A stretch of DNA of 64,000 nt, taken from NCBI GenBank assembly GCA_963675665.1, contig OY776510.1:160001-224000 (forward strand). The letters are read 5' to 3'. A program made the position numbers and the translations under genes. Below the pieces are notes generated by a model. That model did not search any database. It saw only the letters and a list, made by a program, of their open reading frames with translations, and had not been told where the DNA came from. Source of the stretch: Spirochaetia bacterium. GTDB taxonomy: Bacteria; Spirochaetota; Spirochaetia; UBA9216. Below, piece after piece: positions 5,398 through 58,361 of this stretch (positions are counted from its first letter, which is position 1; each line of letters starts with the position of its first letter).

Positions 5398-6330
5398 CTA
5401 TAAAGCACCGATTTTAATTTTTACTCCGCAGTCTCTGCCGATATCAACAAGGTACTGCAGATCTTCCTTCTTTACAGGCTGCAAATCATGCAGTTTGTAT
5501 TTCCTTCCAAGGCCTTTGTATTTCATGTTGCCGAGCCTGTGATACGGAAGGATCTCTATCCAAAGCAAATTCTTCAATTTCGAAGCCCATTCGAAAATTT
5601 CGCGCTGAATATCCGGCTGATCATTAATTCCGGGAATGGAAGGAACCCGTATAATCATTTTCTTATTGAACCCGTCCAGTTTAATGATATTTTTAAGAAT
5701 TTGATCATTATTGACGCCGGTATACTTTTTATGAAGAACGCTGTCACTGTGCTTAATATCAACATAGATCAAATCAGCGTCCCGTAAAATGTGTAACGAG
5801 CTGTCTTCGTTAGTGTAGAGACATGTTTCAACTGCAACATGAAAATGATAGTCTTTGCAGGCTTTAATCAGCTCTGCTAAAAACTTTGACTGAAGAAGAG
5901 GTTCTCCCCCGGAAAAAGTAACACCCCCTCCTGATTCTATATAAAAGTCCCGGTCTTTTAAAACTTCCGCCATAACCTCGTTTACGGACATTTCCCTGCC
6001 TGTAAACTCGCGCGCACCGTAATAACATGCGCTTACACACTCGCCGCATAATACGCATTTTGAAAAATCTGTATAAATTCCGTATTTATCATCGTACCGA
6101 ACAGCCCCGACCGGACATTTTTCAACACACCGACCGCATAGACTGCATTTATTGGGAAAGTATATAATCTGCGGTTTTTTTATCTGAGATTCGGGATTTG
6201 CGCACCAGTCGCATCTTAACGGACAGCCCTTCATAAAAACAACCGTCCTTATTCCCGGGCCGTCTTCAAGACCATAACGTTCAATATTAAAAATTATACC
6301 CTTCATCTGCCCCATCCTGCTTTCAGGCAT
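5398..6330 (-). CDS. glycyl-radical enzyme activating enzyme 1 (radical SAM with 2x[4Fe-4S] ferredoxin insert)
   Basis: DGPGIRT, CPLRCDWCANPES (CX3CX2C), CSLCGRC...CP and CVLCGEC...C inserts, SGGEP, LPYH. Confidence 0.95.
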   Translation of the reverse strand: MPESRMGQMKGIIFNIERYGLEDGPGIRTVVFMKGCPLRCDWCANPESQIKKPQIIYFPNKCSLCGRCVEKCPVGAVRYDDKYGIYTDFSKCVLCGECVSACYYGAREFTGREMSVNEVMAEVLKDRDFYIESGGGVTFSGGEPLLQSKFLAELIKACKDYHFHVAVETCLYTNEDSSLHILRDADLIYVDIKHSDSVLHKKYTGVNNDQILKNIIKLDGFNKKMIIRVPSIPGINDQPDIQREIFEWASKLKNLLWIEILPYHRLGNMKYKGLGRKYKLHDLQPVKKEDLQYLVDIGRDCGVKIKIGAL

Positions 6331-8734
6331 TTACCTCCGCCCTTCCGATAAGATCGTCCTGGCAGGCGCTGTCCAGCAGGGTGAACAGACAGCTGTATCC
6401 GGAAACCCTGACCATCAGGTCTCTGTACATATCCGGATTGGCTTTTGCGGCCTTCAGGGTTGAATTGTCAACAACATTGAACTGGATCTGCTGGCCGTAT
6501 TTATCAAAAAACACCTTTATCAGCGCGGCAATCCGCTTCCGCCCTTCAAGCGATTTCAAAATACCGTTTGCAAGCCTCATATTCAGTATGGCGCCCTTCT
6601 GGAACCATTCCGTCGGCATTTTACTGACGGAAAGCACTGTGGCAGTTGCACCCATTTTCTCCGCCCCGTTGCACGGTGAAATACCGTTGTTGACCGGCTG
6701 ACCGGCTTTTCTTCCGTCGGGAGTTGCTCCGATTAACTTGCCGAACGCAACATTTCCGGTAACGGGGCTGATATTGGTTGAGAAACACCCGGGAACCGGT
6801 CCTTTGCCGTACCTTGAATTCCTGAAATCCTTGTGAAAACTGCTGCCTATAAAGTCGGCGATTCTTACAGACCATTTATCAACTGAATCTTCATCGTTTC
6901 CGAATTTAGGAGCCTTGTTTATCAGAAGCTGCCTTATTTCCTCACCGGTTGGAGATGTTGTCGTATCCTCGAAATTTGAGGACAGGGCATGCATCAACTG
7001 CTCTGAGGTTACCAGATTTTTATCAAATACAGCGTATTCGATTGCCCCGAGAGAATCTCCGGCTGTATTTATTCCGGCTGTCGGCCCTCCGTCTGCGGAA
7101 TAAACGGAACCTCCTTCAATCAGTGAAAGCCCCCGCTCTACGCAGTCTGCTATCAGCGATGATGAAAACGCGTTTATGTCCCGTTCCCTGTGCAGGTCGT
7201 CGCTGATATGTTCCATGATAACAATCAAACTCATGTAATAATTCAGCTGCTTTTTAAACGACTCGAATAATTCTTCAGTACTTTTCAGTTCAGTCAGATC
7301 TCCGTCGCCGGGCAGCAGGGTTATTCCTTTAGCAGGGTCCGTCCCGTTATTCAGGGTTATTTCGAGGACCTTTGCGATATTTAAGCCGCCGCCTTTTGCC
7401 GCAAAATCCCATTTTCCCGGAATAGAAGCTTCAATGCATCCTACCGGGGCCCAGTTTACGGCATCTTCACGGCTAACCCCCATACCTGTAAGGGTTCGTA
7501 TGAAAGCCTTGTCATTATAGAATGCAGGCATACCGCCTTTATGCTTCTGTACAGCCTCCAGAGCCCTTGTTATAAAACCGTCATCGGTACCTTCAAACCA
7601 CTTAACGGAAAGTGATGACGTAAAAAGCTTTACATCCTCATAGGCTTCGATACAGAGCCAGGAAAGATCATTAACAGCGTCCTTTCCGTCAACGGTCTGT
7701 CCTCCGATGGAAAGATTTATTGCCATATGGTAATTCGGCATCATCTGGGTTTCATCCCAGCAGCGCAGTTTATTCAGCGAATTCATTTTTATAACGAACA
7801 GTTCAATTAATACAAGCGCTTCCTCTCTGCTCAAAGAACCGTCTTCAATGTCCGCTGAATACAGCGGATACAGGTACTGATCAAATCTACCGACAGAATT
7901 TGAATGACCGTTGGACTCAATATAATACATCAGAAGTATGAACCAAACGCTCTGAACACCTTCCCTGAAATTCCGCGCGGGATTTTCCGGGACGTTCGCA
8001 CAGCTTTCCGCCATTCGCATCAGTTCCGCTTTTCTTTCAGGATCCTTTTCCTGTTTCGCTTCTTTCAGACATAACTCTGAATAGCGATTTGCAAACCGGA
8101 TAACAGCTTCATTTGAGATAACAACGGCATTTAAAAACCAGTGTTTTTTTATTGCATCCGGCTGCGTCAAATCGAGTTCTTCAAGCTTCTTTTTTGCATG
8201 ATTGATAACATATCTCAATCCCTTCCTGACGACCAGCTCAAAATCAGGAAGCATATTCCCCAGAGCTGCAACTATAACCCAGGTATTGTCTATTACGCCC
8301 ATCTCCCAGGCCTGAGTGCATTCAGGCGGCAGCCGTTTTTTATAGCTTTCAAAAAGGGTCTTTCCTTCCCAGTATTGTATTATTTCCAGCAATTCAGCCC
8401 TTACTTCGTCGCTGCAGATGAACCTGTCGGCAGGTCTCCGGTCCAGCGGATAGGGGATCCCGTTAAGATCATTTTTAAGCCATTCGGTTGAATATTCAGG
8501 GTAGATAGGTGCAGCCCAGGGCCTGCTTGTCTGATTGCCGACAATAAGTTCGCCTTCCGATACAAAAAGCGACATATTATCAAGTACATTTGCAAATGCC
8601 TTTGCTCTTCTTACCGCTATATTTTCGCCCTCGGTCTGCTTCATTGACTGTGTAAAAAACCTGGCCCTTTCGCTGCAGATTTCGGGTACTGTTTCAAAAA
8701 AACGGCTTCGTAAACTTTCGATTCTTGTATCCAT
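6323..8734 (-). CDS. glycyl radical enzyme 1 (YbiW/eliminase-like clade, substrate unknown)
   Basis: IESNGHS, GRFDQY, Cys loop WAPVGCIEASIPGKW, ATPDGR, Gly loop RVSGYS (Gly ~779). A single Cys, so not PFL. Confidence 0.93.
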   Translation of the reverse strand: MDTRIESLRSRFFETVPEICSERARFFTQSMKQTEGENIAVRRAKAFANVLDNMSLFVSEGELIVGNQTSRPWAAPIYPEYSTEWLKNDLNGIPYPLDRRPADRFICSDEVRAELLEIIQYWEGKTLFESYKKRLPPECTQAWEMGVIDNTWVIVAALGNMLPDFELVVRKGLRYVINHAKKKLEELDLTQPDAIKKHWFLNAVVISNEAVIRFANRYSELCLKEAKQEKDPERKAELMRMAESCANVPENPARNFREGVQSVWFILLMYYIESNGHSNSVGRFDQYLYPLYSADIEDGSLSREEALVLIELFVIKMNSLNKLRCWDETQMMPNYHMAINLSIGGQTVDGKDAVNDLSWLCIEAYEDVKLFTSSLSVKWFEGTDDGFITRALEAVQKHKGGMPAFYNDKAFIRTLTGMGVSREDAVNWAPVGCIEASIPGKWDFAAKGGGLNIAKVLEITLNNGTDPAKGITLLPGDGDLTELKSTEELFESFKKQLNYYMSLIVIMEHISDDLHRERDINAFSSSLIADCVERGLSLIEGGSVYSADGGPTAGINTAGDSLGAIEYAVFDKNLVTSEQLMHALSSNFEDTTTSPTGEEIRQLLINKAPKFGNDEDSVDKWSVRIADFIGSSFHKDFRNSRYGKGPVPGCFSTNISPVTGNVAFGKLIGATPDGRKAGQPVNNGISPCNGAEKMGATATVLSVSKMPTEWFQKGAILNMRLANGILKSLEGRKRIAALIKVFFDKYGQQIQFNVVDNSTLKAAKANPDMYRDLMVRVSGYSCLFTLLDSACQDDLIGRAEVNA

Positions 8735-8749: not shown

Positions 8750-10276
8750 TCAGGCTCCGCAGGCAGCTAATTCTTCGCTTACCATTGGCGTAAGCAGATC
8801 TGTCTTACACAGGAACCTCTCACTGTTATCAAATTCATGAACAACTTTACCTTTTTTCAGGACAAGTATCCTGTCTGAGAGGCTTAAAATTTCTTCAAGT
8901 TCATCTGATATGAATATTATGGATGTTCCTTCTTTTGCCAGGGAATCGATAAGACTATATATCTCTTCCTTGGCACCGACATCAACACCCCTGGTCGGCT
9001 GATCCAGTATTATCACTCTTGAACCGATGGAAAGCCACTTTCCGATTACTACTTTCTGCTGGTTTCCGCCGCTTAAAAAACGGACTTCCTGTTCTTCCGA
9101 ATGACATTTTATGCAAAGGAAATCTATCATTCTGCGGATCGATTTCCGCATCGCCCCGTAATTTATAACACCATATTTCGTGCTTTTTTTCAGGGATGCA
9201 AGCGAGATATTATCCCTGATTGTTCTTTTCAAAACAAGCCCTTCTGTTTTCCGGTCTTCAGGTATAAATGCCAGTTTGGCCGACACCGCCTTTGCGGGGG
9301 AACTAACATTTATCTTTTTACCGTCGAGGATTATTTCTCCGGAGGCGGTCTCTTCAGCTCCAAAAATCATCCGCGCCAGTTCCGTTCTGCCGGAGCCGAC
9401 AACTCCCGCTATTCCCAGAACTTCTCCCTTTCTCAGGTTAAAAGACACATCCTTTACGATTCCGTTCTTCTGGGTCAACTCCTTTACCTGAAGAACGGAA
9501 TCTTCCGACAGGTTGTCCCGGATATATTTTTTCTCGGAGTCCGAACAGTGACCTATCATGCATTCAACAATCTGCTTTTTTGTAAAGTCTTCGATATTCC
9601 GGGTTGTTACATTCTTTCCGTCACGAAGCACCGTCACCCTGTCCGCCACAGTAAAGATCTCTTCAAGAAAATGTGAAATATAAATAACAGATATACCTTG
9701 ATTACTAAGATCTTTTATTACTGAAAATAATTTTTCCGTTTCGCTGATTGAAAGCGACGAAGTAGGCTCATCCATTACCACAACACTTGATTGAATTGCC
9801 ACAATTCGTGCAATAAGAACAAGCTGCTGCATTGCCGGAGATAACGATTCTACTTTCCGGTTAGCGTCAATTGGAAAACCGAGGGAATCCAGCAGCGCCT
9901 GAGCTTCCTTTCTCATCGAGGGTCTGTCGATTACAGGAATGTTTTGCCCTTTTTTTTCCCTGCCTAAAAATATATTCTCGCTTACATCGAGATTTGTTAC
10001 TAAATCCAGTTCCTGATGAATCATGGTTATGCCGTGGTTAAGTGCATCAATGGGATCATTAAAATTCAATATTTCATTTTTTAAAACAATTTCTCCAGTA
10101 TAATTAACATAGATACCGTTCAGTATTTTCATCAAGGTTGACTTTCCAGCGCCGTTTGCTCCTACAATCGCATGGACTTCCCCTCGTTTAACATCAAGAT
10201 TGACGCTGTCAAGCACCCGCACTTTATCAAATTCTTTTGTGATATTTTTCATCTGAAGAACATAACTGTCATTCAT
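8750..10276 (-). CDS. sugar (CUT2) ABC transporter ATP-binding protein
   Basis: GANGAGKST, MDEPT, second NBD with LSGGNQQKV; RbsA/MglA-like tandem NBD. Start placed at MNDSYVL. Confidence 0.93.
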   Translation of the reverse strand: MNDSYVLQMKNITKEFDKVRVLDSVNLDVKRGEVHAIVGANGAGKSTLMKILNGIYVNYTGEIVLKNEILNFNDPIDALNHGITMIHQELDLVTNLDVSENIFLGREKKGQNIPVIDRPSMRKEAQALLDSLGFPIDANRKVESLSPAMQQLVLIARIVAIQSSVVVMDEPTSSLSISETEKLFSVIKDLSNQGISVIYISHFLEEIFTVADRVTVLRDGKNVTTRNIEDFTKKQIVECMIGHCSDSEKKYIRDNLSEDSVLQVKELTQKNGIVKDVSFNLRKGEVLGIAGVVGSGRTELARMIFGAEETASGEIILDGKKINVSSPAKAVSAKLAFIPEDRKTEGLVLKRTIRDNISLASLKKSTKYGVINYGAMRKSIRRMIDFLCIKCHSEEQEVRFLSGGNQQKVVIGKWLSIGSRVIILDQPTRGVDVGAKEEIYSLIDSLAKEGTSIIFISDELEEILSLSDRILVLKKGKVVHEFDNSERFLCKTDLLTPMVSEELAACGA

Positions 10277-10289
10277 TCCAAACCTTCTT

Positions 10290-11279
10290 TTAATCTCTCT
10301 TTGTATTGGATAAACTGTCAATACCGACTGCACCGAGAATTATCATTCCGGTAATTGCTGACTGCCAGAAGGGATTAACCCCGAGCAGCTGAATAAGATT
10401 GAGTATCAGCCCCAGAATTATAGTTCCTATAACGGAACCCAGGATATTTCCGCGACCTCCTTCCAGCGAAATTCCCCCGACGATACACCCGGCTATTGCA
10501 GTAAGCTCATACCCCTGACATGCGTCCGCAGTCGCCATCAATACCCTTAAATTTAATAAAACCCCTCCGAGAGACGCTAACATTCCACAGTACATAAACG
10601 CCAGAATTCTCAGTTTTTGAGTCTTCACCCCGGAAAGCCATGATGCGTTTTCATTTCCGCCTATTGCATACAGATACTGACCGAAGGTGGTGTATCTCAG
10701 GACAAAGAACAGAACAACAGCAAGAACAATCCATATTGACGCTGAAATTGGAAAAGGTCCTATTTTTCCGAGACCAATCACGCCGTATGCCCTTGGAACC
10801 CCCATTACAGGAAAACCGTTGGTTACAATATAAATAATACCCCTTCCGATAGTCATTGTTCCCAGAGTCGTTACAAAATAGTTGATTTTAGCTTTGGTTA
10901 TTAATAGACCGTTTACAAGACCCATAATGCAGCCTACCGACAGGCCGCCTGCAACACCAATAACAAATCCGAACTCACGGAAAAGGTGTGTTGAAACTAT
11001 TGCCGTCAGCGCTGCCGTTGAGCTGACTGATAAATCAATCGCTCCAGTTATAAGAACAAAAGACATTCCCAGAGCAATGGTTCCATATACTGCATTATGG
11101 TTAAAAATATTAAAAATGTTTTCAATAGAACGAAATGTAGGTGAAATTATTCCGCTTACAATAAACATACCTATTAAAACGAAGAACATGGTATTTTCTC
11201 TTTTCTTCAACACCCTGCCGAGTCCAAGAGCGTTTTGCTTTATAAAACTACCCTCAACTCCGTTTATGATTTCTGACAC
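10290..11279 (-). CDS. sugar ABC transporter permease (RbsC-like)
   Basis: GAIDLSV, FVTTLG, YAIGGNENASWLSGV, IAGCIVGGISLEGGRG motifs. Confidence 0.93.
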   Translation of the reverse strand: MSEIINGVEGSFIKQNALGLGRVLKKRENTMFFVLIGMFIVSGIISPTFRSIENIFNIFNHNAVYGTIALGMSFVLITGAIDLSVSSTAALTAIVSTHLFREFGFVIGVAGGLSVGCIMGLVNGLLITKAKINYFVTTLGTMTIGRGIIYIVTNGFPVMGVPRAYGVIGLGKIGPFPISASIWIVLAVVLFFVLRYTTFGQYLYAIGGNENASWLSGVKTQKLRILAFMYCGMLASLGGVLLNLRVLMATADACQGYELTAIAGCIVGGISLEGGRGNILGSVIGTIILGLILNLIQLLGVNPFWQSAITGMIILGAVGIDSLSNTKRD

Positions 11280-11336
11280 TTTAGCATCTCCTTATCTCAA
11301 CCGGAAAACCGGCTTTTCCTTCATTATGCATCTAAC

Positions 11337-11369
11337 GGGAACCTCAGAACAAAGTGCTCTGAGGTTCCC
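11337..11369. terminator. intra-operon stem-loop between the binding-protein and permease genes
   Basis: GGGAACCTCAGA...TCTGAGGTTCCC, flanked by an outer aaaaccggctt/aagccggtttt pair; typical position for an mRNA stabiliser or attenuator. Confidence 0.65.
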
Positions 11370-11424
11370 TCATTAGAAGCCGGTTTTTCTGAAACCGGCC
11401 CGTTAATATACAATCTTTTGATCT

Positions 11425-12396
11425 CTACCAGGCTGCTCCATAATTCCCGATATTATCAACAGTTACTTTCGGCAAATCAGTCCAGGTCTGTTTTTCTATG
11501 TTCCTGTCTCCGTTTAGGTAGCGAACAGCCACCTCTATACCGAGATTACCCTGTTCCTGTGGATCCTGAAGAACCGTACCGTAGATTTCTCCTTCATGGA
11601 TTGAATCAACAACTTCCTGAGGCAGATCAAAACATACAATTTTACCAAGAAGTTCATCTCTTCCTGAAGACTTTACCGCTTCAACAGCGCCAAGGGCTTC
11701 GTAAGGCCCCTGCAATACGATTGCGTCAATTTCTCCCTTTTTATACTTTAAAAGGAAATTCTCAACTACAACTATTGTTTTAGCCTTATCCCAGTCTTCC
11801 GGCTGTTTTGCAAGGATATTGATACCCGGAGCATTTTTGGAAATATAATCCTCAAGCCCCTGTTCCCTCATTACCTGAGGCGAACTTCCGAGGGAGCCCT
11901 GACAGAGGACGATATTTCCATTACCAGCCAGCAATTCATCAAGGATTTCCCCCTGAATAGAGCCTCCGGTACGGTCATCACATCCTACATATGTTACTAT
12001 ATCAGGACCTTCTCCGAGCTGACGGTTTACTGTTACTATAGGAATACCCGCCGCGATGCATTTATCAGCTACAGGAACCAGTGCATCAAGCTGCGCTGCG
12101 ACAATGATAACAAGATCTTTCTTCTGAATGATAAAAGTTTCAATCTGGCTCATCTGAACATTCGGATCTGATTTTCCGTCCTGAATATCAAGATTTGCGC
12201 CCAACCTGTCTGCAGCACCTTCCATACCCTTCATCATACGAACAAAAAAGGGAATTTTGAAATCGGCCATAGCAACGCCGATGTTATACCCCTGACTGGA
12301 TGTTCCTGTATCTTCCTGTGATCCGTTTGCAAAACTAACCCCGCATACCAGCAGCATTGCAGTTGCCATCACGATTACCAGCATCTTTCTTTTCAT
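11425..12396 (-). CDS. sugar ABC transporter substrate-binding protein (RbsB-like)
   Basis: Signal peptide then ANGSQE; PFF, GIPIVTVNR, YVGCD, GTVLQDP motifs; SD AAGGAGG. Confidence 0.92.
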   Translation of the reverse strand: MKRKMLVIVMATAMLLVCGVSFANGSQEDTGTSSQGYNIGVAMADFKIPFFVRMMKGMEGAADRLGANLDIQDGKSDPNVQMSQIETFIIQKKDLVIIVAAQLDALVPVADKCIAAGIPIVTVNRQLGEGPDIVTYVGCDDRTGGSIQGEILDELLAGNGNIVLCQGSLGSSPQVMREQGLEDYISKNAPGINILAKQPEDWDKAKTIVVVENFLLKYKKGEIDAIVLQGPYEALGAVEAVKSSGRDELLGKIVCFDLPQEVVDSIHEGEIYGTVLQDPQEQGNLGIEVAVRYLNGDRNIEKQTWTDLPKVTVDNIGNYGAAW

Positions 12397-12493
12397 GCTA
12401 ATCCTCCTTAAAATAATTACCCTGCCCTGATTTTCCAGGACTTAATACTTTACGATTACCACGTCATTTCCGGAAATAATTTCTCATGGTTGA

Positions 12494-12562
12494 TGTATTA
12501 TAGATTACGTTTACATATAAGTAAAATAAATATATTTAATGTTTACTATGCATTAAACTTAT
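12494..12562 (-). promoter_or_regulatory. promoter of the ABC-GRE1 operon with LysR-type box
   Basis: TTTACT-N17-TATAAT on the minus strand; T-N11-A box (12549-12561) centred near -65; 34/44 nt identical to 19689-19732. Confidence 0.7.
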
Positions 12563-12576
12563 ACTATAATAATTAT

Positions 12577-13461
12577 ATGAACCTGGATTGGTACAGAGTA
12601 TTTTTTCAATTAGCTAAAAGCGGCAGTTTTTCAAAAGCCTCAAAGGAACTGTTTGTAACCCAGCCTGCCGTCAGTAGAACAATCGCACAACTGGAAGACT
12701 TTTTAGGGTGTGAATTATTTTACAGATCGCGTCAGGGTGTAACTTTAACAGAACAGGGAAAGGTCTTGTATGAGAACCTAGAAAATGCATTCGATTCAAT
12801 CTCAGCTGCGGAAAAAGCTATTGAAGAAATACAAACCCTGAAAAAAGGGGAAATAAAATTCGGAGCAAGCGATATTTTATTTAGAAACTATCTTGTTGAG
12901 ATTCTAAAACTGTTTAAATCGGAGTATCCTAATATAAAAATAAAAATTGTCTCACATAGTACTTCAAATATTATAAACCTGCTAAAAAGAGGAGAAATCG
13001 ATTTCGGCATAGTAAATTTACCGGTTGCTACTGACAAGAAACTAGCATTTAAACCCATCATAACAGTACAGGACTGCTTTATAGTGGGCGAAAAATATAA
13101 ACATCTGGTTGAAAAAAGAATTCATCTTAATGAATTAGTTGATTATCCTTTTATACTATTGAATAATTCAACAAATACCAGAAAACATATAAACCAGCAT
13201 TTTAAAAATAATTCCATCTCGATTATTCCTGATTTTGAATTTGGAAATACTGATTTGCTTGTAGAATTTGCAAAAAATGATTTTGGTATTGCTTATGTCT
13301 GCAAAAATTTTGTTAAACAAAATCTTGAATCAGGCCAGGTTTATGAAATAAATCTTTATGAAGAGATACCTCCACGAGAAATCAGTGTTGCCTGGTTAAA
13401 CAGCATACCTCTTTCGGTAGTGTCAAAAGCCTTTATTGAGATGCTGGATAAACCTGTATAA
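12577..13461 (+). CDS. LysR family transcriptional regulator
   Basis: GSFSKASKELFVTQPAVSRTIAQLE HTH, LFYR..GVTLTEQG; divergent from the ABC operon; TATAAT 6 nt before ATG 12577. Confidence 0.95.
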   Translation: MNLDWYRVFFQLAKSGSFSKASKELFVTQPAVSRTIAQLEDFLGCELFYRSRQGVTLTEQGKVLYENLENAFDSISAAEKAIEEIQTLKKGEIKFGASDILFRNYLVEILKLFKSEYPNIKIKIVSHSTSNIINLLKRGEIDFGIVNLPVATDKKLAFKPIITVQDCFIVGEKYKHLVEKRIHLNELVDYPFILLNNSTNTRKHINQHFKNNSISIIPDFEFGNTDLLVEFAKNDFGIAYVCKNFVKQNLESGQVYEINLYEEIPPREISVAWLNSIPLSVVSKAFIEMLDKPV

Positions 13462-13507: not shown

Positions 13508-14125
13508 CTAGAAATTTAAATCAAATATATCCTGCGGTTGTTTAAAAATATATTCTGCATTAATATCTGTAATTGTTTTAGCACCCCAGGATGCCAAACC
13601 GAAATCTATTTCCGCATTTATGGCACAAAGGCTGTCATACAGAGTATCTCCAATATAGATCACGGAAGACGGATCAGCTCCTGATAATTCCAAATATTTC
13701 AATAATGGAGCCGGCTGCGGTTTATGGTTTAGAGTGTCATCCACACAAACGGTATATTTAAAATATTTTTTTAAATCAAGATTATCAAATAATTTATCCA
13801 GAGCATTTCTCGTTCTGGAGGTTACAATTCCCATAGTGATGTCTTTATTATATAAGGCGTCAAGCATGTTTCTTATACCGTTAAATAAAACAAGCGATTT
13901 ACTTTCATGTCTTAAATAAAAATCCCATTCCTCCTTGGCCTGTTTAATATTCTTAATTCCCAATAGTCTCAAAGCCTCTACGCCGGGAATACCTAATACA
14001 AAAGACAATTCTTTATTTTCTTTTTTTATTCCATATTTTTCGACAACTTTACTCAATGTTGAGATAATTACATTTTCAGAATCAATCAATGTACCGTCTA
14101 CATCGAAAACAAAATTTAGATACAT
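13508..14125 (-). CDS. HAD-IA family phosphatase
   Basis: FDVDGTLID, VTS, HKPQP, YIGDTLYD motifs; SD AAGGA before ATG 14125. Confidence 0.9.
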   Translation of the reverse strand: MYLNFVFDVDGTLIDSENVIISTLSKVVEKYGIKKENKELSFVLGIPGVEALRLLGIKNIKQAKEEWDFYLRHESKSLVLFNGIRNMLDALYNKDITMGIVTSRTRNALDKLFDNLDLKKYFKYTVCVDDTLNHKPQPAPLLKYLELSGADPSSVIYIGDTLYDSLCAINAEIDFGLASWGAKTITDINAEYIFKQPQDIFDLNF

Positions 14126-14222: not shown

Positions 14223-15164
14223 TCATTGGCCGCTGCCGCCAACACTTACCATAAACCCAAAATCCGTGAGAATATTTGCTGTTTTTGTAATCTCTTCAAG
14301 GCTTATCCCCTGCTGGTTTTTAAAACTGTAATCCTTATCCAACCCTTCCCATTTTGTCTCTCCGGCCTGATGGAAAGGCATCAGATGTATTTCCTCAATT
14401 CCCGCAGCTTTACAAAAGTTCCCCATAGTCTCAATTTCCCGTGTCGAATTGTTTACACCGGGAATTAAGGGATATCTTACAATAATCTTTTTCCCCTTGT
14501 CCACGGCATCACGTAAATTTTGCCGGATCAGCTTGTCATCAACTCCTGTATATTCTCTGTGCATATCTGCATTCGGGTGTTTAATATCAAAGAGTATTAA
14601 ATCAGCGGGAAGGATAACACGACGAAAATTTTCAGTTGAAGCATACCCACAGGTCTCTATTGTGATATGGATATCGTCTTCTTTCAGAGAAATTATAAGC
14701 TGTTCCGCGAAAATACTTTGTAAGGTTACCTCCCCGCCGGACAGCGTAACACCGCCGCCGCTGTTCATATAGAAAACAAGATCGCGACTGACAATTTCTC
14801 TGAGCTCATCAACCGTATAAAATTTCCCTATCAGCCTCCGCGCCTCCGACGGACATACTTTTGCGCACTCACCACAGTCGGTACATTTTAAACGATCAGT
14901 TATCAGTTTTTCATCACTGATGTATATTGCGTCAGATTTACAGACTTCGGCACACTTTCCACAACCGATACAGGCATCCTGATCATAAATTATTTCAGGC
15001 ATCATTCTGAACGTTTCAGGATTATGACACCATTTACACCTAAGAGGACACCCCTTGAAAAAAACTGTGGTCCGGAGCCCCGGACCGTCATGGACACAGT
15101 ATCTCTGAATATCCGAAATTACAGCAATGGTGCCGGATTTTATTCTATCTTGCTCCCTCATCAT
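14223..15164 (-). CDS. glycyl-radical enzyme activating enzyme 2 (radical SAM with ferredoxin insert)
   Basis: HDGPGLRTTVFFKGCPLRCKWCHNPET, CIGCGKC and CTDCGEC..VCP inserts, SGGE, MPFH. Confidence 0.95.
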   Translation of the reverse strand: MMREQDRIKSGTIAVISDIQRYCVHDGPGLRTTVFFKGCPLRCKWCHNPETFRMMPEIIYDQDACIGCGKCAEVCKSDAIYISDEKLITDRLKCTDCGECAKVCPSEARRLIGKFYTVDELREIVSRDLVFYMNSGGGVTLSGGEVTLQSIFAEQLIISLKEDDIHITIETCGYASTENFRRVILPADLILFDIKHPNADMHREYTGVDDKLIRQNLRDAVDKGKKIIVRYPLIPGVNNSTREIETMGNFCKAAGIEEIHLMPFHQAGETKWEGLDKDYSFKNQQGISLEEITKTANILTDFGFMVSVGGSGQ

Positions 15165-17437
15165 ATACCATGCTTTACCCTTTTTATCATAATATCCTGA
15201 TGCATCTTCGGCAGTGCGACAAAATACCCCGAATACCCCCCTATGCGCACTCTGAGCCCCTTATAAGCCTCCGGTTGTTTCTGGGCATTACGCATCATTT
15301 CCTCACTGACTCCGGTAACAGTCAAGATGTTTCCTCCCAACTCCATAAAGGAGCGGATAATTCCTGTTAGCCTTTGTATCCCTTCATCACCAGCTGCCTC
15401 ATTTGCATTAATTTGTATATCCAGCGGGCAACCGCCGAAATACGGCAGAAGATCCGGCTTGGTGCATGATAAAATAGCTGCTGTCGGACCGTTTGTATCA
15501 CAACCGACTGACGGAGAATAATTACTGGATATTGTGGTTTCTGCACTGCGTCCGTCCGGAGAAGCCCCGCAGCGACCTCCCAATTTTGCGTAATGCTCAA
15601 ATGTGCCCAACGCGAGAGGAAGCATCATCTTCGGGTCTTCCGCCTGTAAATCCTTCACATAAGCAGCTAAATCACCCAATATACGTATCATCAGCTCATC
15701 CGCATAATTATCATCGTTTCCGAATTTTAAGCCCCTTGATGCAAGTGTTTCACGAAGAACCTCATAACCTTTAAAATTTTCACTGGTAGCATTTATTATC
15801 TGCTTCATAGTGAATTTATTTTCCTCAAAAACAAATTTCCTGATTGCGGCAAGAGAATCGACGGTATTTGCCATTCCGGAGATTATAGGCGGATACATCA
15901 TATACCTGGCCCCGCCGTTCGTAATATCCAGACCGTTTTCAATACAGTCGTCAATAAATATCGACAGCATCGGGTCCGGTGCGATTGTGCTGTGCACCCC
16001 GTAGATATTTCTTCTTGTTCTGATTCCATCGCTTATCGCTTTCTTCATATGGGAAAGATAAGCATCATACAGCTGCTCAAAAGCCGTAAATTCTTTCGCA
16101 TCCCCGGTATCGAGCTCACATTCTCTTGTCTTCCGAACCAGGCTGCAGCCGTTATGAAGCGTATATTCCAGCTGTAGAAGGGATTCAATATCAACATGGT
16201 TGTGATCAGTACATCCGGGGATAAGCGTTTCCCAGCACCCGTCATTTGAATAATCGCGCGCATCCTCCAGCGGCACGCCCTTTTCGGTAAATCCCGGTAT
16301 TATTTTTTCATCATTATAAATGGCAGGTTCGCCGCTTCCCGAACGCAGTATTCGTGCACATTCCTCATATAAACGCGGTGGAGATCCTTTAAAAAACCGG
16401 ACTGACATCACTGGAGCTATCAGTTCAAGCTTATTCCATAACCGCAAGATCATATAAGTCAGCTCGTTTGTCGCATCGTTGCCATCCCTTTTCTGACCGC
16501 CGATTATTGCATTCATAAACCAGGAATTTGCTCCGATTCCGTAGTTCCCGGTTCCGGGCGCAGTAAAATACGGAGGGACCTTTTCTGAAAGATCGATAGC
16601 CTTTCCGCCCGGGGCAAAATCCGTTACCTCTGCATGGCTTTCCCAGGAATCCGGACTTGTCTGGATGCGTTCACTGAATTTTGCAAGCCAGGAGGCTAAA
16701 AGCTCTTCCGCATATTCCTGTGATATCAAACCGCTTTCAGTGTCCTCTTTATAGAAAGGATAGAAGTACTGGTCGCAGCGCCCGACAGGAATCAAATCCA
16801 TTGTGGATTGGAGGGCAATATAAACAATCCAGAAACACTGTAATGCTTCATGAAGCGTCTCCGGCGCATTTTCCGGTGTTTTTTCAAGGATCCTTGCGAT
16901 TTCCAGAAGTTCATTGCGCCTGGCTGCATCGGATTCATTCAACGATTCAAACTGCGCGATTTTAGCGTAACGTTGAGCGAAACGTTTCAGGGCATCCAGA
17001 GATATAAACATCGCTTCATATTCAGATATCTTTCTTTCATCACTTTCAAGCTTTAATTTTTCTAAAATCTTTTCACGATAACCATGCAATCCAAGCTTTA
17101 GAAGCTTCTCAAAATTTATAGGCAGATGAGCCCATACAGAGTTTACCCCGACCCCTTTTTTTGCTGCCTCCTCTTTTTCTTCAGGGGTGGCATATTCAGG
17201 GAATTCACGTCCCAGTTCGCTGCTGGCCATTCCGGCGATGCCGACAATCAATTCGTAAGGTCTGATATATGCCGGCATGTTATTTATCATTAAATCTATT
17301 GCCATTGCCTTGCGTATAACAATCGGCAAAGATCCGGCCTTTTCGTCCGTCAATACAGTGAGCTCACTGCCCCACCATTCTTTTTTTTCTTTGAAACCGT
17401 CAAACATGCTTTTTTTTATTTTTTCTATTCTGGTCAT
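15161..17437 (-). CDS. glycyl radical enzyme 2 (divergent DGCWE-type, substrate unknown)
   Basis: GRCDQY, Cys loop YSNDGCWETLIPG, KFGNDD, ASPDGR, Gly loop LRVRIGGYSGYF (Gly ~734); stop overlaps the activase 2 start. Confidence 0.92.
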   Translation of the reverse strand: MTRIEKIKKSMFDGFKEKKEWWGSELTVLTDEKAGSLPIVIRKAMAIDLMINNMPAYIRPYELIVGIAGMASSELGREFPEYATPEEKEEAAKKGVGVNSVWAHLPINFEKLLKLGLHGYREKILEKLKLESDERKISEYEAMFISLDALKRFAQRYAKIAQFESLNESDAARRNELLEIARILEKTPENAPETLHEALQCFWIVYIALQSTMDLIPVGRCDQYFYPFYKEDTESGLISQEYAEELLASWLAKFSERIQTSPDSWESHAEVTDFAPGGKAIDLSEKVPPYFTAPGTGNYGIGANSWFMNAIIGGQKRDGNDATNELTYMILRLWNKLELIAPVMSVRFFKGSPPRLYEECARILRSGSGEPAIYNDEKIIPGFTEKGVPLEDARDYSNDGCWETLIPGCTDHNHVDIESLLQLEYTLHNGCSLVRKTRECELDTGDAKEFTAFEQLYDAYLSHMKKAISDGIRTRRNIYGVHSTIAPDPMLSIFIDDCIENGLDITNGGARYMMYPPIISGMANTVDSLAAIRKFVFEENKFTMKQIINATSENFKGYEVLRETLASRGLKFGNDDNYADELMIRILGDLAAYVKDLQAEDPKMMLPLALGTFEHYAKLGGRCGASPDGRSAETTISSNYSPSVGCDTNGPTAAILSCTKPDLLPYFGGCPLDIQINANEAAGDEGIQRLTGIIRSFMELGGNILTVTGVSEEMMRNAQKQPEAYKGLRVRIGGYSGYFVALPKMHQDIMIKRVKHGI

Positions 17438-17474: not shown

Positions 17475-19370
17475 TTACTGCTGACTTATATACTCCCCGA
17501 CCCAGTCAAGATTTAAGGACATCAGGCGGGTTTTTGAAGGCTCACCTTTTTCTCCGACCCACCCCGCCATTTCGTAATACTGCTCTCTTGTTTCATTAAA
17601 ATCGGCTTCATTAACGACCTTCCCTTCCGAAATACCATCCGCTAAAGGAGTCGACAGTTTAAGCGGTAATTTATCGTCATCCTTATCAAATCCTTCGCGG
17701 ATATTGAATGCGCGCATCATCTGCAAACCGCGCTCTCCAACCATCAGCATCTCGTAAAGATTTGTTTCCCACCCTGTCGCAAAGTTGATAGCGTCCACCA
17801 GTTCATCAAAGCTGTACGCTCCGCCGAAACCGAATATCATAATGCATACCGATGCTGTATCAACCAGAGCGTATGCTCTTTGAGTCCGCCAGAACAATTT
17901 CGCTTTTTCGGAGTTAAGCTCATCAGGAGCTTCAATCCTGTCGAATCCAAAACTTTTCAGCCTATTCGACAGAGGATAGGTCCCAAGGCTCGGATCCATT
18001 TCCACTGAAACATGATCCGAGCCGAAAGATACCAATGCATATGACAACCCTAAAACGGCTTTAGTCTGCGGCATATGCGCAGGAAACTCTTTCTTTTTAA
18101 CCGTGATTAAAAGCTTACTGCTGTTATTTCCGAAAATTCCGGAAAGCCTCTCCGAGCCGAGAGCGATAAGCTTGCCGAATCCAGTTCCAGTACCAGTCAT
18201 TTCAGCCAACCGGATTACTGATTCGGAATTACCGAAATGGCAGTCGAATCCTTCCGTATCTTCCGCAGTGATAATTCCCTTCTCAAAACATTCCATGATA
18301 AAGCCCATTGTTGCACCGAACGAGACTGTATCCATTGCATACATGGCGCAAATCTCATTGATTTTACAGATAGCGAGCTTATCGGATATCCCGAGATTGG
18401 AACCGCACATTCCGATTGTTTCATATTCAGGTCCACCGTACTTTGCATCTATCCGGTCGGTCTTGCTTTTGTCCACATGACGCTTGCAGCTTTGTGCACA
18501 GGCATAACACGTGCCCGGTTTGATTATTTCTTCATTCCAGGCTTCCGGCATCAGTTTATCAACATTTTCGAATGTTCCTGATGTCCAGTTTCTGGTCGGC
18601 AATCCCCCCAGGGCGGAATTTTCCACAACACAGCCTATTGTTCCGTTCTGTTTGAAACTCTGAAGACCGACGCTTTCACGTATTCTGTTAATTCCCTTCC
18701 GGGCAAAGATTTTCATACCTTCCGGATCAAAAAAATCCGGTTTCTGCGTTCCGCGAACGGCAATGGCTCTTAAATTCTTGGAACCCATCACCGCACCGAG
18801 CCCCCCCCTGCCGTTAAAATGCGCAAGTTCATTTACAATATTAGCGTATCTACACAATGTTTCGCCCGCGCAGCCTATTTGTGCTACTCTGATTTTTTGA
18901 TCTTCATGATAATTTCTGATATGTGCTTGCGCTTCTCCTGTTGTTTTTCCCCATATTTCCGCTGCATCAAGCAGTGAATATTCTCCGTCACAGATCCACA
19001 GATACGAAGGAGTTTCCGCTTTTCCGGTCAGAACTATCGCATCAAAACCGGCTTTTTTCATCTCAGGCGCAAAGTAACCGCCGCCCTCACTTGTCGCAAT
19101 CCCGCCGGTAAGCGGAGATTTGGCTGTTACGGAATGCCTGGAAGCACCGGAAATATTTGATCCTGTAAGCGGACCGACTGTAAAAGCAATAACATTGTCC
19201 GGCGATAATGGATCAACACCCTGTTCTGTTCCCTGCATTACATAGTAAACACCCATACAGCTGCCGCCGACATACTTACGATAGAAATCTTCATTTGGTC
19301 TTTCTATTTCAAATTTCTGTTCAGTTAAATTAATATGCAGTATTTTACCGTTGTATCCTTTCATCCTCAC
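17475..19370 (-). CDS. aldehyde:ferredoxin oxidoreductase family (W/Mo-pyranopterin)
   Basis: GYNGKILHINLT, KSPLTG, GRGGLGAVMGSKNLRAI, CYACAQSC, GPEYET, YYEMAGW motifs; start may be 19364. Confidence 0.93.
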   Translation of the reverse strand: MRMKGYNGKILHINLTEQKFEIERPNEDFYRKYVGGSCMGVYYVMQGTEQGVDPLSPDNVIAFTVGPLTGSNISGASRHSVTAKSPLTGGIATSEGGGYFAPEMKKAGFDAIVLTGKAETPSYLWICDGEYSLLDAAEIWGKTTGEAQAHIRNYHEDQKIRVAQIGCAGETLCRYANIVNELAHFNGRGGLGAVMGSKNLRAIAVRGTQKPDFFDPEGMKIFARKGINRIRESVGLQSFKQNGTIGCVVENSALGGLPTRNWTSGTFENVDKLMPEAWNEEIIKPGTCYACAQSCKRHVDKSKTDRIDAKYGGPEYETIGMCGSNLGISDKLAICKINEICAMYAMDTVSFGATMGFIMECFEKGIITAEDTEGFDCHFGNSESVIRLAEMTGTGTGFGKLIALGSERLSGIFGNNSSKLLITVKKKEFPAHMPQTKAVLGLSYALVSFGSDHVSVEMDPSLGTYPLSNRLKSFGFDRIEAPDELNSEKAKLFWRTQRAYALVDTASVCIMIFGFGGAYSFDELVDAINFATGWETNLYEMLMVGERGLQMMRAFNIREGFDKDDDKLPLKLSTPLADGISEGKVVNEADFNETREQYYEMAGWVGEKGEPSKTRLMSLNLDWVGEYISQQ

Positions 19371-19385: not shown

Positions 19386-19646
19386 TCAGCCGCCTGATAA
19401 AAAAGGTATTATCATAAAAGAATCCCCTTCTTTTACCGTAATATCTTCCTTAATCGCTCTAGCCAAAGGAATCCCTCTGATCATCATGGTATACGGGGTC
19501 TCGATTCCGTAATTTGTATCCAAAAAACTCGAAACATATTGTGAAGCATTTCTGATTTCATCATCAACATAAAGCGTTTCGAATTTTACACCTGTTATAT
19601 TTTTATATTCACCAATATATTCAATCGTGATTTTGACACCTTTCAT
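19386..19646 (-). CDS. MoaD/ThiS family sulfur carrier
   Basis: 86 aa ending EGDSFMIIPFLSGG (C-terminal GG), next to the AOR gene. Confidence 0.85.
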   Translation of the reverse strand: MKGVKITIEYIGEYKNITGVKFETLYVDDEIRNASQYVSSFLDTNYGIETPYTMMIRGIPLARAIKEDITVKEGDSFMIIPFLSGG

Positions 19647-19688: not shown

Positions 19689-19757
19689 TGTATTATATTT
19701 CAGAATTATATATAAGTAAAATGCATATTTTTTATAATATATATAATTATTATTTAT
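19689..19757 (-). promoter_or_regulatory. promoter of the MoaD-AOR-GRE2 operon with LysR-type box
   Basis: TTTACT-N17-TATAAT; ATA-N9-TAT box at 19743-19757, at the same offset as the box in 12494-12562. Confidence 0.7.
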
Positions 19758-19950: not shown

Positions 19951-21081
19951 TTAGTAACTTCCCCTGTCGGCGCTGTAGGCATCTTTCTTCAGCTCTTTCG
20001 CCTCGTCTTTGTGCAGTGTAAACCCGTCCCCCTGGTAACAGGCTTTGTAGGCGGCGATTGCCTCCTGACGGCGGCCGGTAATATCAAGCAATTTGCCCAT
20101 CTCAAGGTTGATTTCCGAAGCAGTATAACCGCTTATTTCATCAAAACTCAGCGACTCCCGGTAAAGCTCCACCGCACTGTTATAATCTCCCAGGGCATTA
20201 CACAGGTTGCCCGTCATCTGGATATACCTTGGAAGCCACTTGCCGGCAAGCTCTCCGCTACCCGGAGCCGTCTCATAAAAGGACAGCAGTTTTTCAGCTT
20301 CGGAAAGCCTGCCGGTGCGCAGCAGAAGATCGATATAAAAAAAGCGTACAGACAGGTTTCCCGGGAACTCCCCTAAAAACGACTCCGCAGTCCTGATGGC
20401 GGAATCGTAATCTTTTTCTATGTAGATACAGGAACTGATATACATCAGATTTGCCTCGTACCGGGTCAAACCGCCTTCTTTTGCCGCCCGTGCAATACCG
20501 GCAAGGCCTTCCGCCTGATCAGGTGAAAAATTGAGCCCCTTGAGCAGGGGTTTCAGATAATCCGGGGCCAGTGAAGTTGTGTAATCCTGTTCGCCCAGAA
20601 TAAAATACATTTCGGGCGGAAAATTCCCCCTCTCCAGGAGTTCCACTGAAAGTTTTCGGGCCTCCACAGCAGAGGCTGCAGTATGTATCCATCGCTCACT
20701 GAGAGCATAACTCTTCATGCGGTAATAACAGAGAAAACAGGCGGCAAACGTCCCGTCAACGCCGCCGGAGTTATCCGTTTCATCGACTTTGTCTTCGGCA
20801 GTCTTCAGATCGCTGAAGATTCTGTTGAAATTTTCATCTCCGGGATCCTGCTTGACTTTCAGAAAATCATAGACAACCTGTCCGAGATCTCCCCACACAT
20901 CCGCCGGATTCTCACTTCTATACTCCGCCAGAACCTCTTCAGCCTGATCAAACTTAAGATTGTAAGCCAGCTGAATAGCGTCATCGACCCGAATCGGCGC
21001 GGAAAAGGCCGATATACCCGTCAAAACCATAAAAAGAGACAGTAACAGCCCTGTATTTTTTTTTATTTTGTGGAATTCCAT
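19951..21081 (-). CDS. secreted tetratricopeptide-repeat protein
   Basis: Signal peptide and helical TPR-like repeats (GNLCNALGDYNSAVELYRESL; MGKLLDITGRRQEAIAAYK). Confidence 0.7.
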   Translation of the reverse strand: MEFHKIKKNTGLLLSLFMVLTGISAFSAPIRVDDAIQLAYNLKFDQAEEVLAEYRSENPADVWGDLGQVVYDFLKVKQDPGDENFNRIFSDLKTAEDKVDETDNSGGVDGTFAACFLCYYRMKSYALSERWIHTAASAVEARKLSVELLERGNFPPEMYFILGEQDYTTSLAPDYLKPLLKGLNFSPDQAEGLAGIARAAKEGGLTRYEANLMYISSCIYIEKDYDSAIRTAESFLGEFPGNLSVRFFYIDLLLRTGRLSEAEKLLSFYETAPGSGELAGKWLPRYIQMTGNLCNALGDYNSAVELYRESLSFDEISGYTASEINLEMGKLLDITGRRQEAIAAYKACYQGDGFTLHKDEAKELKKDAYSADRGSY

Positions 21082-52930: not shown

Positions 52931-53893
52931 TTAGACTTTTTCCCTTTTTCGTTTAATTGAGTACAATTCCATACCAATAATTATTACTATTAATGCACCC
53001 ATAATTGTCTGTTGCGTATATGAACCAAGCGCTAACAGATTCATTGAGTTTTCTATAACATTGAATAAAATTATTCCAACAACAGACGGCAGAATACCTC
53101 CGACTCCGCCGGCAAATGATGTGCCGCCTATTACAACACTGGCATTCACAATATATGCAGTTGTGTCTCCATATATGGCGGAAGCTGAAAAGAATCGTGC
53201 CGAAAGCATGATTCCGCCCAATGCTGCCGTCATACCGCTGATAACAAATGCTATCCATTTCTGTCTCACAGCATTTATTCCCGAATATACAGCAACATCA
53301 TAATCACCGCCGATAGCATATAAATTACGTCCATAGGAAGTCCGGGTCATTAACAAATGGAAGAGAACTACAAGTATAATCGTAATAATTACTACATAAG
53401 GTATTCCAAAAACCTCTGCCTGTCCAAATTCCATTAAAGCCATATCCCGGCCTCCTATGGCTCTTCCGTTTGTTAATTGGAGATTAACTCCCTTTAGTAA
53501 CAAACCCATACCCAAAGTTATAATGAACGGCTCGGTTTTTTGGTGGACCGACAAAAACCCGTTTATAAACCCGATAGCGCCTCCGACTGCAACAGCAATA
53601 ATTCCCGCTGCCCATGTAGGCATAGAAGGATACAGCCCGATTGTGATAACACCTGCAAGACACATCACCCCGCCGATAGAAAGGTCACAGGCTGCCGCGA
53701 TAACAGTCAAGGTTACACCAAGCGCCAATATTGTATACGCTACAGACTGGTTCAATAAACCAAGTATATTTTCTGCTGTAAAGAAATTCGGTGTGGCAAT
53801 TGACATACCGACACTCAATACAACCAATGCCATAAAAGCTTTATTTCTGACAAGTTTATTTATTTCTCTTGATAATATTCCGCTGTAATTCAT
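52931..53893 (-). CDS. sugar ABC transporter permease
   Basis: DLSIG, PFIITLG, YAIGG, VVIGGTSFAGGVG motifs. Confidence 0.92.
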   Translation of the reverse strand: MNYSGILSREINKLVRNKAFMALVVLSVGMSIATPNFFTAENILGLLNQSVAYTILALGVTLTVIAAACDLSIGGVMCLAGVITIGLYPSMPTWAAGIIAVAVGGAIGFINGFLSVHQKTEPFIITLGMGLLLKGVNLQLTNGRAIGGRDMALMEFGQAEVFGIPYVVIITIILVVLFHLLMTRTSYGRNLYAIGGDYDVAVYSGINAVRQKWIAFVISGMTAALGGIMLSARFFSASAIYGDTTAYIVNASVVIGGTSFAGGVGGILPSVVGIILFNVIENSMNLLALGSYTQQTIMGALIVIIIGMELYSIKRKREKV

Positions 53894-53901
53894 ATCTACT
53901 C

Positions 53902-54882: not shown

Positions 54883-54897
54883 TCTCTTCCGTTCCCC

Positions 54898-56376: not shown

Positions 56377-56413
56377 TTCAAACACCCCAAATTCTTTTTA
56401 TAGTATTTCATTG

Positions 56414-56451: not shown

Positions 56452-56473
56452 TTTTTATTATTTTTGTTCTAAT

Positions 56474-58357: not shown

Positions 58358-58361
58358 CTGA

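Follow-up and report, generated by a model that had tools for sequence, protein, structure and literature searches.

A glycyl radical enzyme clade with an NDGCWE cysteine loop, represented in a spirochaete operon, combines eliminase-like residues with a carbohydrate-uptake neighbourhood

Introduction

The best-described relatives of the enzyme considered here are the glycyl radical enzymes (GREs) 1,2-propanediol dehydratase (PD; that of Roseburia inulinivorans, 5I2A/5I2G; also 9RCO-9RCR), glycerol dehydratase (GD) of Clostridium butyricum (1R8W/1R9D), HypD of Clostridioides difficile (6VXC/6VXE) and CutC (5FAU, 5A0U, 9F3W). According to the accessible portion of a 2026 review (PMC13450708), a C-x-E motif is common to all C-O eliminases and recurs in CutC and in C-S lyases, while in GD the proposed proton donor to the leaving hydroxyl is His164. 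For HypD, extracts of PMC7077986 describe His160 as an essential residue that tunes the Glu and Asp278 as an essential acid/base that handles the substrate amine. The same portion of the review names YbiW and PflD as the only characterised carbohydrate-acting GREs. Here we compare these systems with GRE2, a 758-residue GRE encoded at 15161..17437 (minus strand) of a 64,000-nucleotide (nt) stretch of a Spirochaetia bacterium genome (GenBank assembly GCA_963675665.1, contig OY776510.1, positions 160,001 to 224,000, forward strand; hereafter the window, meaning that whole stretch).

We find that GRE2 belongs to a large, widespread and distinct clade of GREs that spans several phyla and lacks a characterised member, and that this clade is linked to sugar-type importers and aldehyde-handling enzymes by neighbourhood enrichment. 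The reading that we favour, with a probability of roughly 55%, is that GRE2 is a functional GRE, its radical set on Gly734 by the adjacent activase AE2, and that it would act as a C-O 1,2-eliminase (dehydratase) on an imported neutral polyol or sugar, giving an aldehyde.

GRE2 and its activase compared with described enzymes

The 15161-17437(-) interval is a single open frame of 758 residues, and its translation matches the Pfam domains PFL-like (PF02901, 439.6 bits) and Gly_radical (PF01228, 62.2 bits), both in excess of their cut-offs. A Shine-Dalgarno sequence, AGGAGA, lies 6 nt 5' of the ATG, and the stop codon is overlapped by 4 nt by AE2 (14223..15164, minus strand), a GRE-activating radical SAM enzyme that scores 339.1 bits against TIGR02494 (cut-off 174.35) and carries the Pfam domains Radical_SAM and two Fer4. 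Because of these domains, the Shine-Dalgarno sequence and the overlapping activase, we take the frame to be a real gene, and GRE2 is thus an intact GRE, an oxygen-sensitive radical enzyme, with a partner activase.

Sequence and fold comparisons led to the same set of enzymes. The closest sequence in the PDB is Roseburia PD (5i2a, 342 bits), followed by CutC, HypD and GD. An AlphaFold2 model built with 119 homologues reached a mean pLDDT of 94.6 and a pTM of 0.93, and Foldseek searches with it returned PD, GD, a second PD (9rco/9rcp), HypD and CutC as the leading matches (TM 0.82-0.86, 23-29% identity), with PD 5i2g at the top (TM 0.85). A characterised GRE of high identity bearing the same motif was looked for, and the best solved structure, PD, is only 29% identical. 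None of the NCBIfam equivalog cut-offs in the following list is reached by GRE2 (score/cut-off in bits): HypD NF043068 396/1100, CutC TIGR04394 333/1050, HpsG 383/1000, HpfG 334/1000, PflD-type PRK09983 321.5/1109, IAD 281/1100, HPAD 212/1150 and pyruvate formate lyase (PFL) 45.7/994. ESM Atlas clusters for GRE2 bore generic "pyruvate formate lyase family" labels only.

Taken one by one, the described enzymes share some features with GRE2 and depart from it in others. PD has the same ten-stranded barrel with Cys and Gly loops, the C-x-E motif, a histidine (His166) aligned with His104 of GRE2, and a dedicated activase with two ferredoxin domains; it is 28-29% identical and differs in its C-V-E as opposed to C-W-E, RVAGYS as opposed to RIGGYS, and SSGHSIS as opposed to STMDLIP, while GRE2 gains about 30 residues ahead of beta3 and lacks about 45 in the N-terminal region. 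Their contexts differ too, in that no microcompartment genes were found among the annotated neighbours of GRE2, where a sugar importer and an aldehyde:ferredoxin oxidoreductase (AOR) stand instead. Cys433, Glu435 and His164 of GD, which is 27% identical, correspond to C401, E403 and H104 of GRE2, and polyol dehydration to an aldehyde is the likely common chemistry. The HypD trio His160, Asp278 and Glu436 is paralleled by position by H104, E/D214 and E403, yet the HypD-type Cys loop, GGTSGCVETG, is unlike the YSNDGCWETL of GRE2. CutC, with its CXE motif and an aldehyde product of the kind predicted for GRE2, is the top match of a profile of the clade (580 bits to 9f3w); it has a Thr six residues before the GR arginine where the clade has an acid, and choline or microcompartment genes are not seen in the GRE2 context. 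YbiW and PflD (1,5-anhydroglucitol-6-P, 1,5-anhydromannitol-6-P; 8ID7, 8ID0, 8YJO), embedded in sugar metabolism as the clade is, are more distant: the isomerase entries 8id0, 8yjo, 7vua and 8id7 score 283.6, 271.1, 262.6 and 260.9 bits, all below the score for PD, and the GRE2 sequence gives no evidence of a phosphate site.

A distinct clade marked by the NDGCWE loop

The best 120 homologues of GRE2, at about 750-806 residues and 41-88% identity, carry NDGCWE in 118 cases, the remaining two having NDVCWE and NDGCTE. Across the clade the Cys loop reads Y(S/A/T/C)NDGCWE and the Gly loop RVR(M/L/I)GG(L/F/Y)S(A/G)YF. Those homologues that have names go by "pyruvate formate lyase family protein" or a like label only, and their sources include Lachnospiraceae, Desulfobacterota and a Tetrasphaera metagenome-assembled genome; some members come from records titled human-gut metagenome, and a pattern scan of a metagenome collection found Y[ST]NDGCWE in 316 stretches. 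Within the window's own phylum the distribution is patchy, with 3 of 401 genomes, this one included, matching at E <= 1e-150.

A quick IQ-TREE maximum-likelihood run on 48 GREs, with SH-aLRT as its only support measure, placed 27 clade members (two of them with SDGCWE) in a monophyletic group whose SH-aLRT support is 100 and whose stem measures 0.63. Outside that branch fell three HypD equivalogs, a PflD-like enzyme, several TIGR01774-positive enzymes and the genome's eight other GREs. The initial annotation had singled out the non-canonical loops of GRE2, and the phylogeny reveals them to be no private oddity: they are the signature of a monophyletic clade. Its further statement that no characterised GRE carries DGCWE agrees with what we found, as no characterised clade member turned up in the PDB, NCBIfam, the accessible text of the 2026 review (PMC13450708) or the portions of the wider literature searched, including bioRxiv from 2024, and no enzyme in the accessible text of that review has a Trp between the Cys and Glu of its C-x-E motif.

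One short GRE (691 residues) outside the clade, at L021:7773-9848(+), shows A-A-C-W-E in its Cys loop and R-V-W-G-W-S in its Gly loop; it forms a long branch neighbouring the NDGCWE clade in the tree. In the genome of the window itself we counted 10 PFL-like GREs, among which the true PFL equivalog accounts for 1, GC(V/I)E loops for 7, a GCLEN loop for 1 and the NDGCWE clade for 2; tblastn further found 16 AOR paralogues and 11 paralogues of the split-transketolase N subunit. The organism is an anaerobe unusually rich in radical and tungsten enzymes.

Catalytic residues and the putative substrate pocket

Residue equivalences and pocket assignments given here come from sequence alignments (phmmer, hmmsearch) and not from distances in the model, and clade column counts refer to a 119-sequence alignment. 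All of the motifs that the initial annotation had listed are present in GRE2. The Cys loop, YSNDGCWE, spans residues 396-403 (16229..16252, minus strand) and holds Cys401 (codon 16235-16237, placed correctly by the annotation at 16237-16235) and Glu403 of the CXE motif; C401 aligns with the "GCVE" of PD, GD, HypD and CutC. The Gly loop, RVRIGGYSGYF (residues 729-739; 15221..15253, minus strand), aligns with "vrvaGYSalf" of PD, which places the presumed radical glycine at Gly734 (15236-15238). Within it, R731-I-G-G734-Y-S takes the place of R-V-A-G-Y-S in PD, with I/M/L replacing V and G replacing A/S in this variant. His104 (17126..17128, minus strand) aligns with GD His164, PD His166 and HypD His160.

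Conservation across the clade is strict at the catalytic positions. N398, D399, C401, E403, G733, G734, N304, T612 and N639 are invariant in 119/119 sequences, W402 is found in 118, and position 104 is His in 106; such a His partner of the Glu is present in GD, PD and HypD and not in every eliminase. In other GREs, 65 of the 70 parseable non-clade sequences in our sample pair C-V/I-E with an Ala or Ser before the radical Gly, which fits the annotation's remark that the usual combination is GC(V/I)E with RV(A/S)GYS. In a beta-hairpin, the residue flanked by Cys and Glu is expected to turn its side chain away from the substrate, and for this reason Trp402 probably packs on the Gly loop without contacting the substrate. 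The clade-wide change of Ala/Ser to Gly at 733 may make room for it, although the correlation of W402 with G733 is lineage-wide and hence no proof of packing.

The initial annotation had gone on to suggest new chemistry, and this is the claim that fares worst, since Cys401, Glu403 and His104, the known 1,2-eliminase machinery, are all retained. Chemistry outside the eliminase/isomerase repertoire could draw on the deep branching of the clade, on its position below the TIGR01774 cut-off (scores are given in the Discussion), on the unique Trp beside the thiyl Cys and on the double glycine at the radical site. We nevertheless consider it very unlikely: the CXE motif and its His partner are hallmarks of characterised eliminases, as the accessible part of PMC13450708 describes them, and the clade's GREs have no conserved neighbour that would supply a further subunit or cofactor. 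To judge from the residues retained, a new substrate handled by known chemistry fits better than new chemistry does.

Around this conserved core the pocket appears to be rebuilt. The strand QSTMDLIP (residues 210-217; 16787..16810, minus strand) stands in place of the usual (E)SxGHSIS strand, as the annotation had proposed for its ESNGHS form and as the alignment of STMDLIPVGR with SSGHSISPGR of PD 5i2a bears out; the clade pattern at this strand is (H/Q)S(T/C)(M/L)(E/D)x(I/V)P. Position 214, an Asp in GRE2, is E in 97, D in 9 and N in 12 of the 119 sequences. Counted from alignments, the conserved GR Arg follows it by six residues, the same spacing as for HypD Asp278 and GD His281, and from the match to Asp278 follows a HypD-like His, acid, Glu arrangement in the clade. 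The GD residues opposite clade Glu/Asp214 and Leu215 we take to be His281/Ser282, and the one opposite clade Gly/Ala611, presumably, Tyr640, a small-diol-contacting residue. Position 611 opens the beta8 segment GTFEHY (residues 611-616; 15590..15607, minus strand), which also holds Thr612 and E614, the latter kept in 116/119 sequences. An insertion before beta3 (residues ~262-305; 16523..16654, minus strand) carries a W-E-x-H motif and N304, with E266 conserved in 110, H268 in 109 and N304 in all 119 sequences; its block-mean pLDDT in the AlphaFold2 model is ~75-91. The ~45-residue insertion that the annotation had reported exists as a segment (264-309, 46 residues), but profile alignments against PD, GD, HypD and CutC put the net gain at only ~30 residues, and this is offset by the ~45 residues of the PD N-terminal region that have no counterpart in GRE2. 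Overall, the annotation's proposal of a different substrate pocket finds support at the sequence level in positions 214, 611, 612 and 614 and in the insertion before beta3, since these clade-conserved changes fall at sites that in the solved eliminases line the pocket. Its His-rich TDHNH (residues 410-414) and GTFEHY segments are real in GRE2 but are not features of the clade: TDHNH occurs in 7 of 120 homologues, its third position is His in 14/119, and His615 is found in 17/119. As candidate metal or catalytic motifs the two were ruled out, being confined to the closest relatives and not conserved in the clade.

With PD and GD as the best matches in both fold and sequence and the catalytic residues retained, GRE2 might be thought to repeat the known dehydration of glycerol or 1,2-propanediol in a divergent scaffold, its odd motifs carrying no new specificity, and the neighbouring AOR could act on propionaldehyde or 3-hydroxypropionaldehyde. 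The pocket argues otherwise, since the presumed Tyr640 position of GD is Gly/Ala clade-wide and the (E)SxGHS strand is replaced. Moreover, the genome already has its seven GC(V/I)E-type GREs, with the GD-like GRE1 in the same module as GRE2, and the ribose-type importers, kinases, transketolases and DeoC found near clade members (below) are ill-suited to a C3 diol. We hold this explanation to be quite improbable.

The polar character of the pocket bears on another alternative, a C-N lyase that would act on an amino alcohol, amino sugar or polyol in the manner of CutC or ethanolamine ammonia-lyase and release an amine and an aldehyde. The pocket has an unusual wealth of acids (the invariant D399 and E403, E/D214 in 106/119, E614), the residue at the 214 position of HypD is the one described in the extracts of PMC7077986 as handling the substrate amine, and an aldehyde product would be compatible with AOR and aldehyde dehydrogenase (ALDH) neighbours. 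Set against this, sugar-type importers and dehydrogenases dominate the neighbourhoods, amine-handling genes are rare (an amidohydrolase in 2/36 clade loci), and Asp, Glu and Asn are, as a matter of general knowledge, usual ligands of sugar hydroxyls as well, so that we regard a C-N lyase as unlikely. The basic residues offer a further clue about the substrate: R729 is the single clade-specific basic residue among the invariant positions, which disfavours a phosphate, sulfonate or carboxylate anchor.

Gene neighbourhoods across the clade

We compared two sets of loci. The clade set comprised 36 non-redundant loci flanked by 6 kb or more, in which the open reading frames (ORFs) within 8 kb were called and clustered and representatives annotated; the other set comprised 55 control GRE loci, mostly of HypD type, drawn from a generic GRE motif scan of 5/64 parts of a genome collection. 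Seven loci of that scan (L001-L007) were themselves clade members and the remaining loci served as controls; tblastn runs over both sets gave a second count of the neighbours. A CUT2 ABC importer lay within 8 kb in 20/36 clade against 3/55 control loci, an ALDH, AOR or iron-type alcohol dehydrogenase (Fe-ADH) in 14/36 against 4/55, and a split transketolase in 7/36 against 3/55, in a comparison in which the clade loci are related and hence non-independent and the controls come from another collection and mostly represent one enzyme type. Broken down, the aldehyde genes of the clade loci comprised ALDH in 9, Fe-ADH in 5 and AOR in 3 loci by ORF clusters, and 10, 3 and 3 by tblastn. Also recurrent in the 36 loci were zinc-type alcohol dehydrogenase (Zn-ADH, 7), short-chain dehydrogenase/reductase (SDR, 7), DeoC (3), ROK (3), Gfo/Idh/MocA (3) and PfkB (2). 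The initial annotation had read an aldehyde product from the linkage to AOR; the enrichment of aldehyde-handling genes supports such a product, but the AOR of this operon alone does not. A second clade member in the same genome, 42% identical to GRE2, lies in an operon of Zn-ADH, binding protein, permease, ATPase, permease, GRE, activase, transketolase N and C subunits, SDR and GntR. At a further locus, L087 (G120:C126), the place of an ABC importer is taken by a gene of the TauE/SafE sulfite-exporter family and an MFS transporter, both close to a clade member (42% identical).

The sole long contig of a close relative, L091, carries a GRE2 counterpart with 76% identity in the one-strand order PfkB-LysR-GRE2-AE2-HAD-GRE1-AE1-binding protein-ATPase-permease, with identities to the window of 45% for the HAD protein, 63% for LysR and 76% for GRE1. 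Since this order lacks the AOR, the conserved module consists of GRE1 and GRE2 with AE1 and AE2, HAD, LysR and the importer, and the AOR is an addition in the genome of the window. HAD and LysR genes were found near the clade GRE in the window and L091 only.

This arrangement raises the alternative of a YbiW/PflD-type role for GRE2, as an isomerase or C-O lyase of sugar phosphates: a kinase would phosphorylate the sugar-like compound after import, GRE2 would turn it into a keto-phosphate by opening or deoxygenating it, and the HAD phosphatase would act downstream. Such a role would account for a HAD gene that stays with GRE2-AE2 in L091 and for the PfkB kinase upstream there; PfkB, ROK, PFK and DeoC genes occur in other clade loci, the split transketolases of seven loci are users of keto-sugars, and YbiW and PflD, as the accessible part of PMC13450708 presents them, also combine a CXE-type loop with sugar-phosphate substrates. 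Against it stand several observations: there is no obvious phosphate clamp, R729 being the only clade-specific conserved basic residue; the aldehyde-handling neighbours indicate a free aldehyde; YbiW and PflD, at ~261-284 bits, are not the nearest solved relatives, and the PflD-like enzyme falls outside the clade; and HAD and PfkB are each found in just 2/36 clade loci. We therefore consider a sugar-phosphate enzyme rather unlikely.

The operons around GRE2

On the minus strand of the window GRE2 is the third gene of an operon that reads promoter-like site, 86-residue gene, AOR, GRE2, AE2, HAD, with successive spacings of 15 nt, 37 nt, a 4-nt overlap and ~97 nt. The promoter-like site (19692..19720, minus strand) is a consensus match only, with 10/12 hexamer positions, 5' of the first gene, which encodes an 86-residue MoaD/ThiS-like protein with a C-terminal Gly-Gly (19386..19646, minus strand). 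This protein has no Pfam match itself and was aligned with small proteins of L006 and L004 that lie beside clade GREs or AORs and all end in GG, the L004 copy matching Pfam ThiS. MoaD/ThiS-like carriers often accompany pterin enzymes. The tungsten-type AOR that follows (17475..19370, minus strand; Pfam AFOR_N and AFOR_C) ends 37 nt upstream of GRE2, and in the PDB it most resembles bona fide AORs (9mqx, 1aor, 8c0z) and not formaldehyde or benzoyl-CoA types. Downstream of AE2 lies a HAD-IA, phosphoglycolate-phosphatase-like gene (13508..14125, minus strand; Pfam HAD_2, 135.5 bits; best PDB match 2hdo), whose likely start is the ATG at 14125, as opposed to the TTG at 14206 in the raw ORF list.

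Between this operon and a second one lies a LysR-family regulator, identified by domain and family searches (12490..13461, plus strand; true start probably near 12577). The second operon, also on the minus strand, runs through a CUT2 (ribose-type) ABC importer (8750..12396: binding protein 11425-12396, permease 10290-11279, ATPase 8750-10333), GRE1 (6323..8734) and its activase AE1 (5398..6330; TIGR02494, 336.1 bits, above the cut-off). In the PDB the binding protein comes closest to ribose-binding proteins and to CUT2 entries that bear no label (110-148 bits). GRE1 is a canonical GD/PD-like enzyme (VGCIE, RVSGYS, ESNGHS; 540 bits to 1r8w), though with an Asn at the GD His164 position and a TIGR01774 score of 639.6 bits, slightly short of the 678.2 cut-off, and because of these two features it is probably not a plain glycerol dehydratase. 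Elsewhere in the genome (C1:5038000-5062000), an 803-residue GRE1 paralogue (56% identical) stands beside an AOR that is 29% identical to the window's, together with an activase, a LacI regulator and CUT2 ABC components, so that the pairing of a GRE with an AOR recurs in this genome.

Other genes of the window lie apart from these two operons. A 1516-residue fusion at 21180-25730(+) combines two BcrAD/BadFG ATPase stretches with DUF2229 ("CoA enzyme activase" type), and a TPR protein (19951-21081) is divergent from it. Tandem giants of 1547 and 1809 residues (26775-31418(-) and 31431-36860(-)) carry the bacterial Ig-like domains Big_7, Big_13 and Big_3_3 and are presumably surface proteins. 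At 52931-60857(-) a further CUT2 ABC importer operon includes an SDR, a Zn-ADH and a class-III aminotransferase, is followed by an alanine-dehydrogenase-like gene (60922-62094(-)), and is possibly an amino-sugar or aminocyclitol route.

Discussion

We propose an eliminase-type mechanism for GRE2 because the catalytic residues of described eliminases are retained, and we infer a neutral, hydroxyl-rich substrate because the clade has no specific basic anchor beyond R729. In the sequence of events that we envisage, AE2 would install the glycyl radical on Gly734, and the thiyl radical of Cys401 would take a hydrogen from the carbinol carbon of the substrate while Glu403, tuned by His104, would accept the hydroxyl proton. 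The neighbouring hydroxyl would depart with help from acidic residue 214, and the product radical would regain a hydrogen to give an aldehyde or other carbonyl. The substrate, a sugar alcohol or (deoxy)sugar, would enter via the adjacent ribose-type ABC importer and might be processed in series with the GD-like GRE1, and the tungsten AOR of the operon would oxidise the aldehyde to an acid with reduction of ferredoxin.

Several observations weigh against this reading of GRE2 as a polyol or sugar dehydratase. With respect to family, GRE2 scores 419.5 bits against TIGR01774 (the GD/PFL2 subfamily) and so misses its 678.2 cut-off, as does the second clade member of the same genome (440.8), while a set of canonical GREs scanned with the same model reaches 689.8-994.5. 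With respect to context, an ABC importer was not seen in 16/36 clade loci and an ALDH, AOR or Fe-ADH not in 22/36, and the enrichment itself rests on dependent clade loci and a one-sided control set. The AOR adjacency in the window is weak evidence, because the genome holds so many AOR paralogues and L091 has none. The conserved HAD gene and the PfkB of L091 hint at a phosphorylated intermediate, which fits a sugar-phosphate isomerase equally well. As to the pocket, its richness in acids (D399, E403, E/D214, E614) would suit an amine-bearing substrate too, and its residues were assigned by alignment in place of model distances.

Extending the dehydratase reading of GRE2 to its relatives, we tentatively suggest, as a possibility held with much less confidence, that the clade dehydrates sugar alcohols or (deoxy)sugars by an undescribed radical reaction, for example a terminal-diol dehydration of a tetritol or pentitol to a 2-deoxy-aldose. 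If so, different lineages would route the product to AOR or ALDH (giving a deoxy-aldonate), to Fe-ADH (for reduction), to a kinase and the DeoC aldolase, or to split transketolase. In the spirochaete, GRE1 and GRE2 would then, speculatively, dehydrate a single imported polyol twice in succession by radical chemistry, and coupling to ferredoxin reduction by AOR would make this an oxygen-free, B12-free route of polyol fermentation.

Whole GRE clades remain without experimental validation, and YbiW and PflD revealed an overlooked glycolytic route, as the accessible portion of the review relates (PMC13450708). The present clade, with its sharp and easily found signature, retains the eliminase residues around what appears to be a rebuilt pocket, and on the alignments and neighbourhoods assembled here it is a signature-bearing, uncharacterised group of eliminase-like GREs tied to carbohydrate uptake. 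The two-GRE module of this spirochaete, in which GRE1 and GRE2 share one importer, offers a concrete system in which to examine possible sequential radical dehydrations. The substrate of the clade would probably add a new anaerobic route of sugar-alcohol or deoxy-sugar breakdown, and would give a name to proteins that are now labelled "pyruvate formate lyase family protein".

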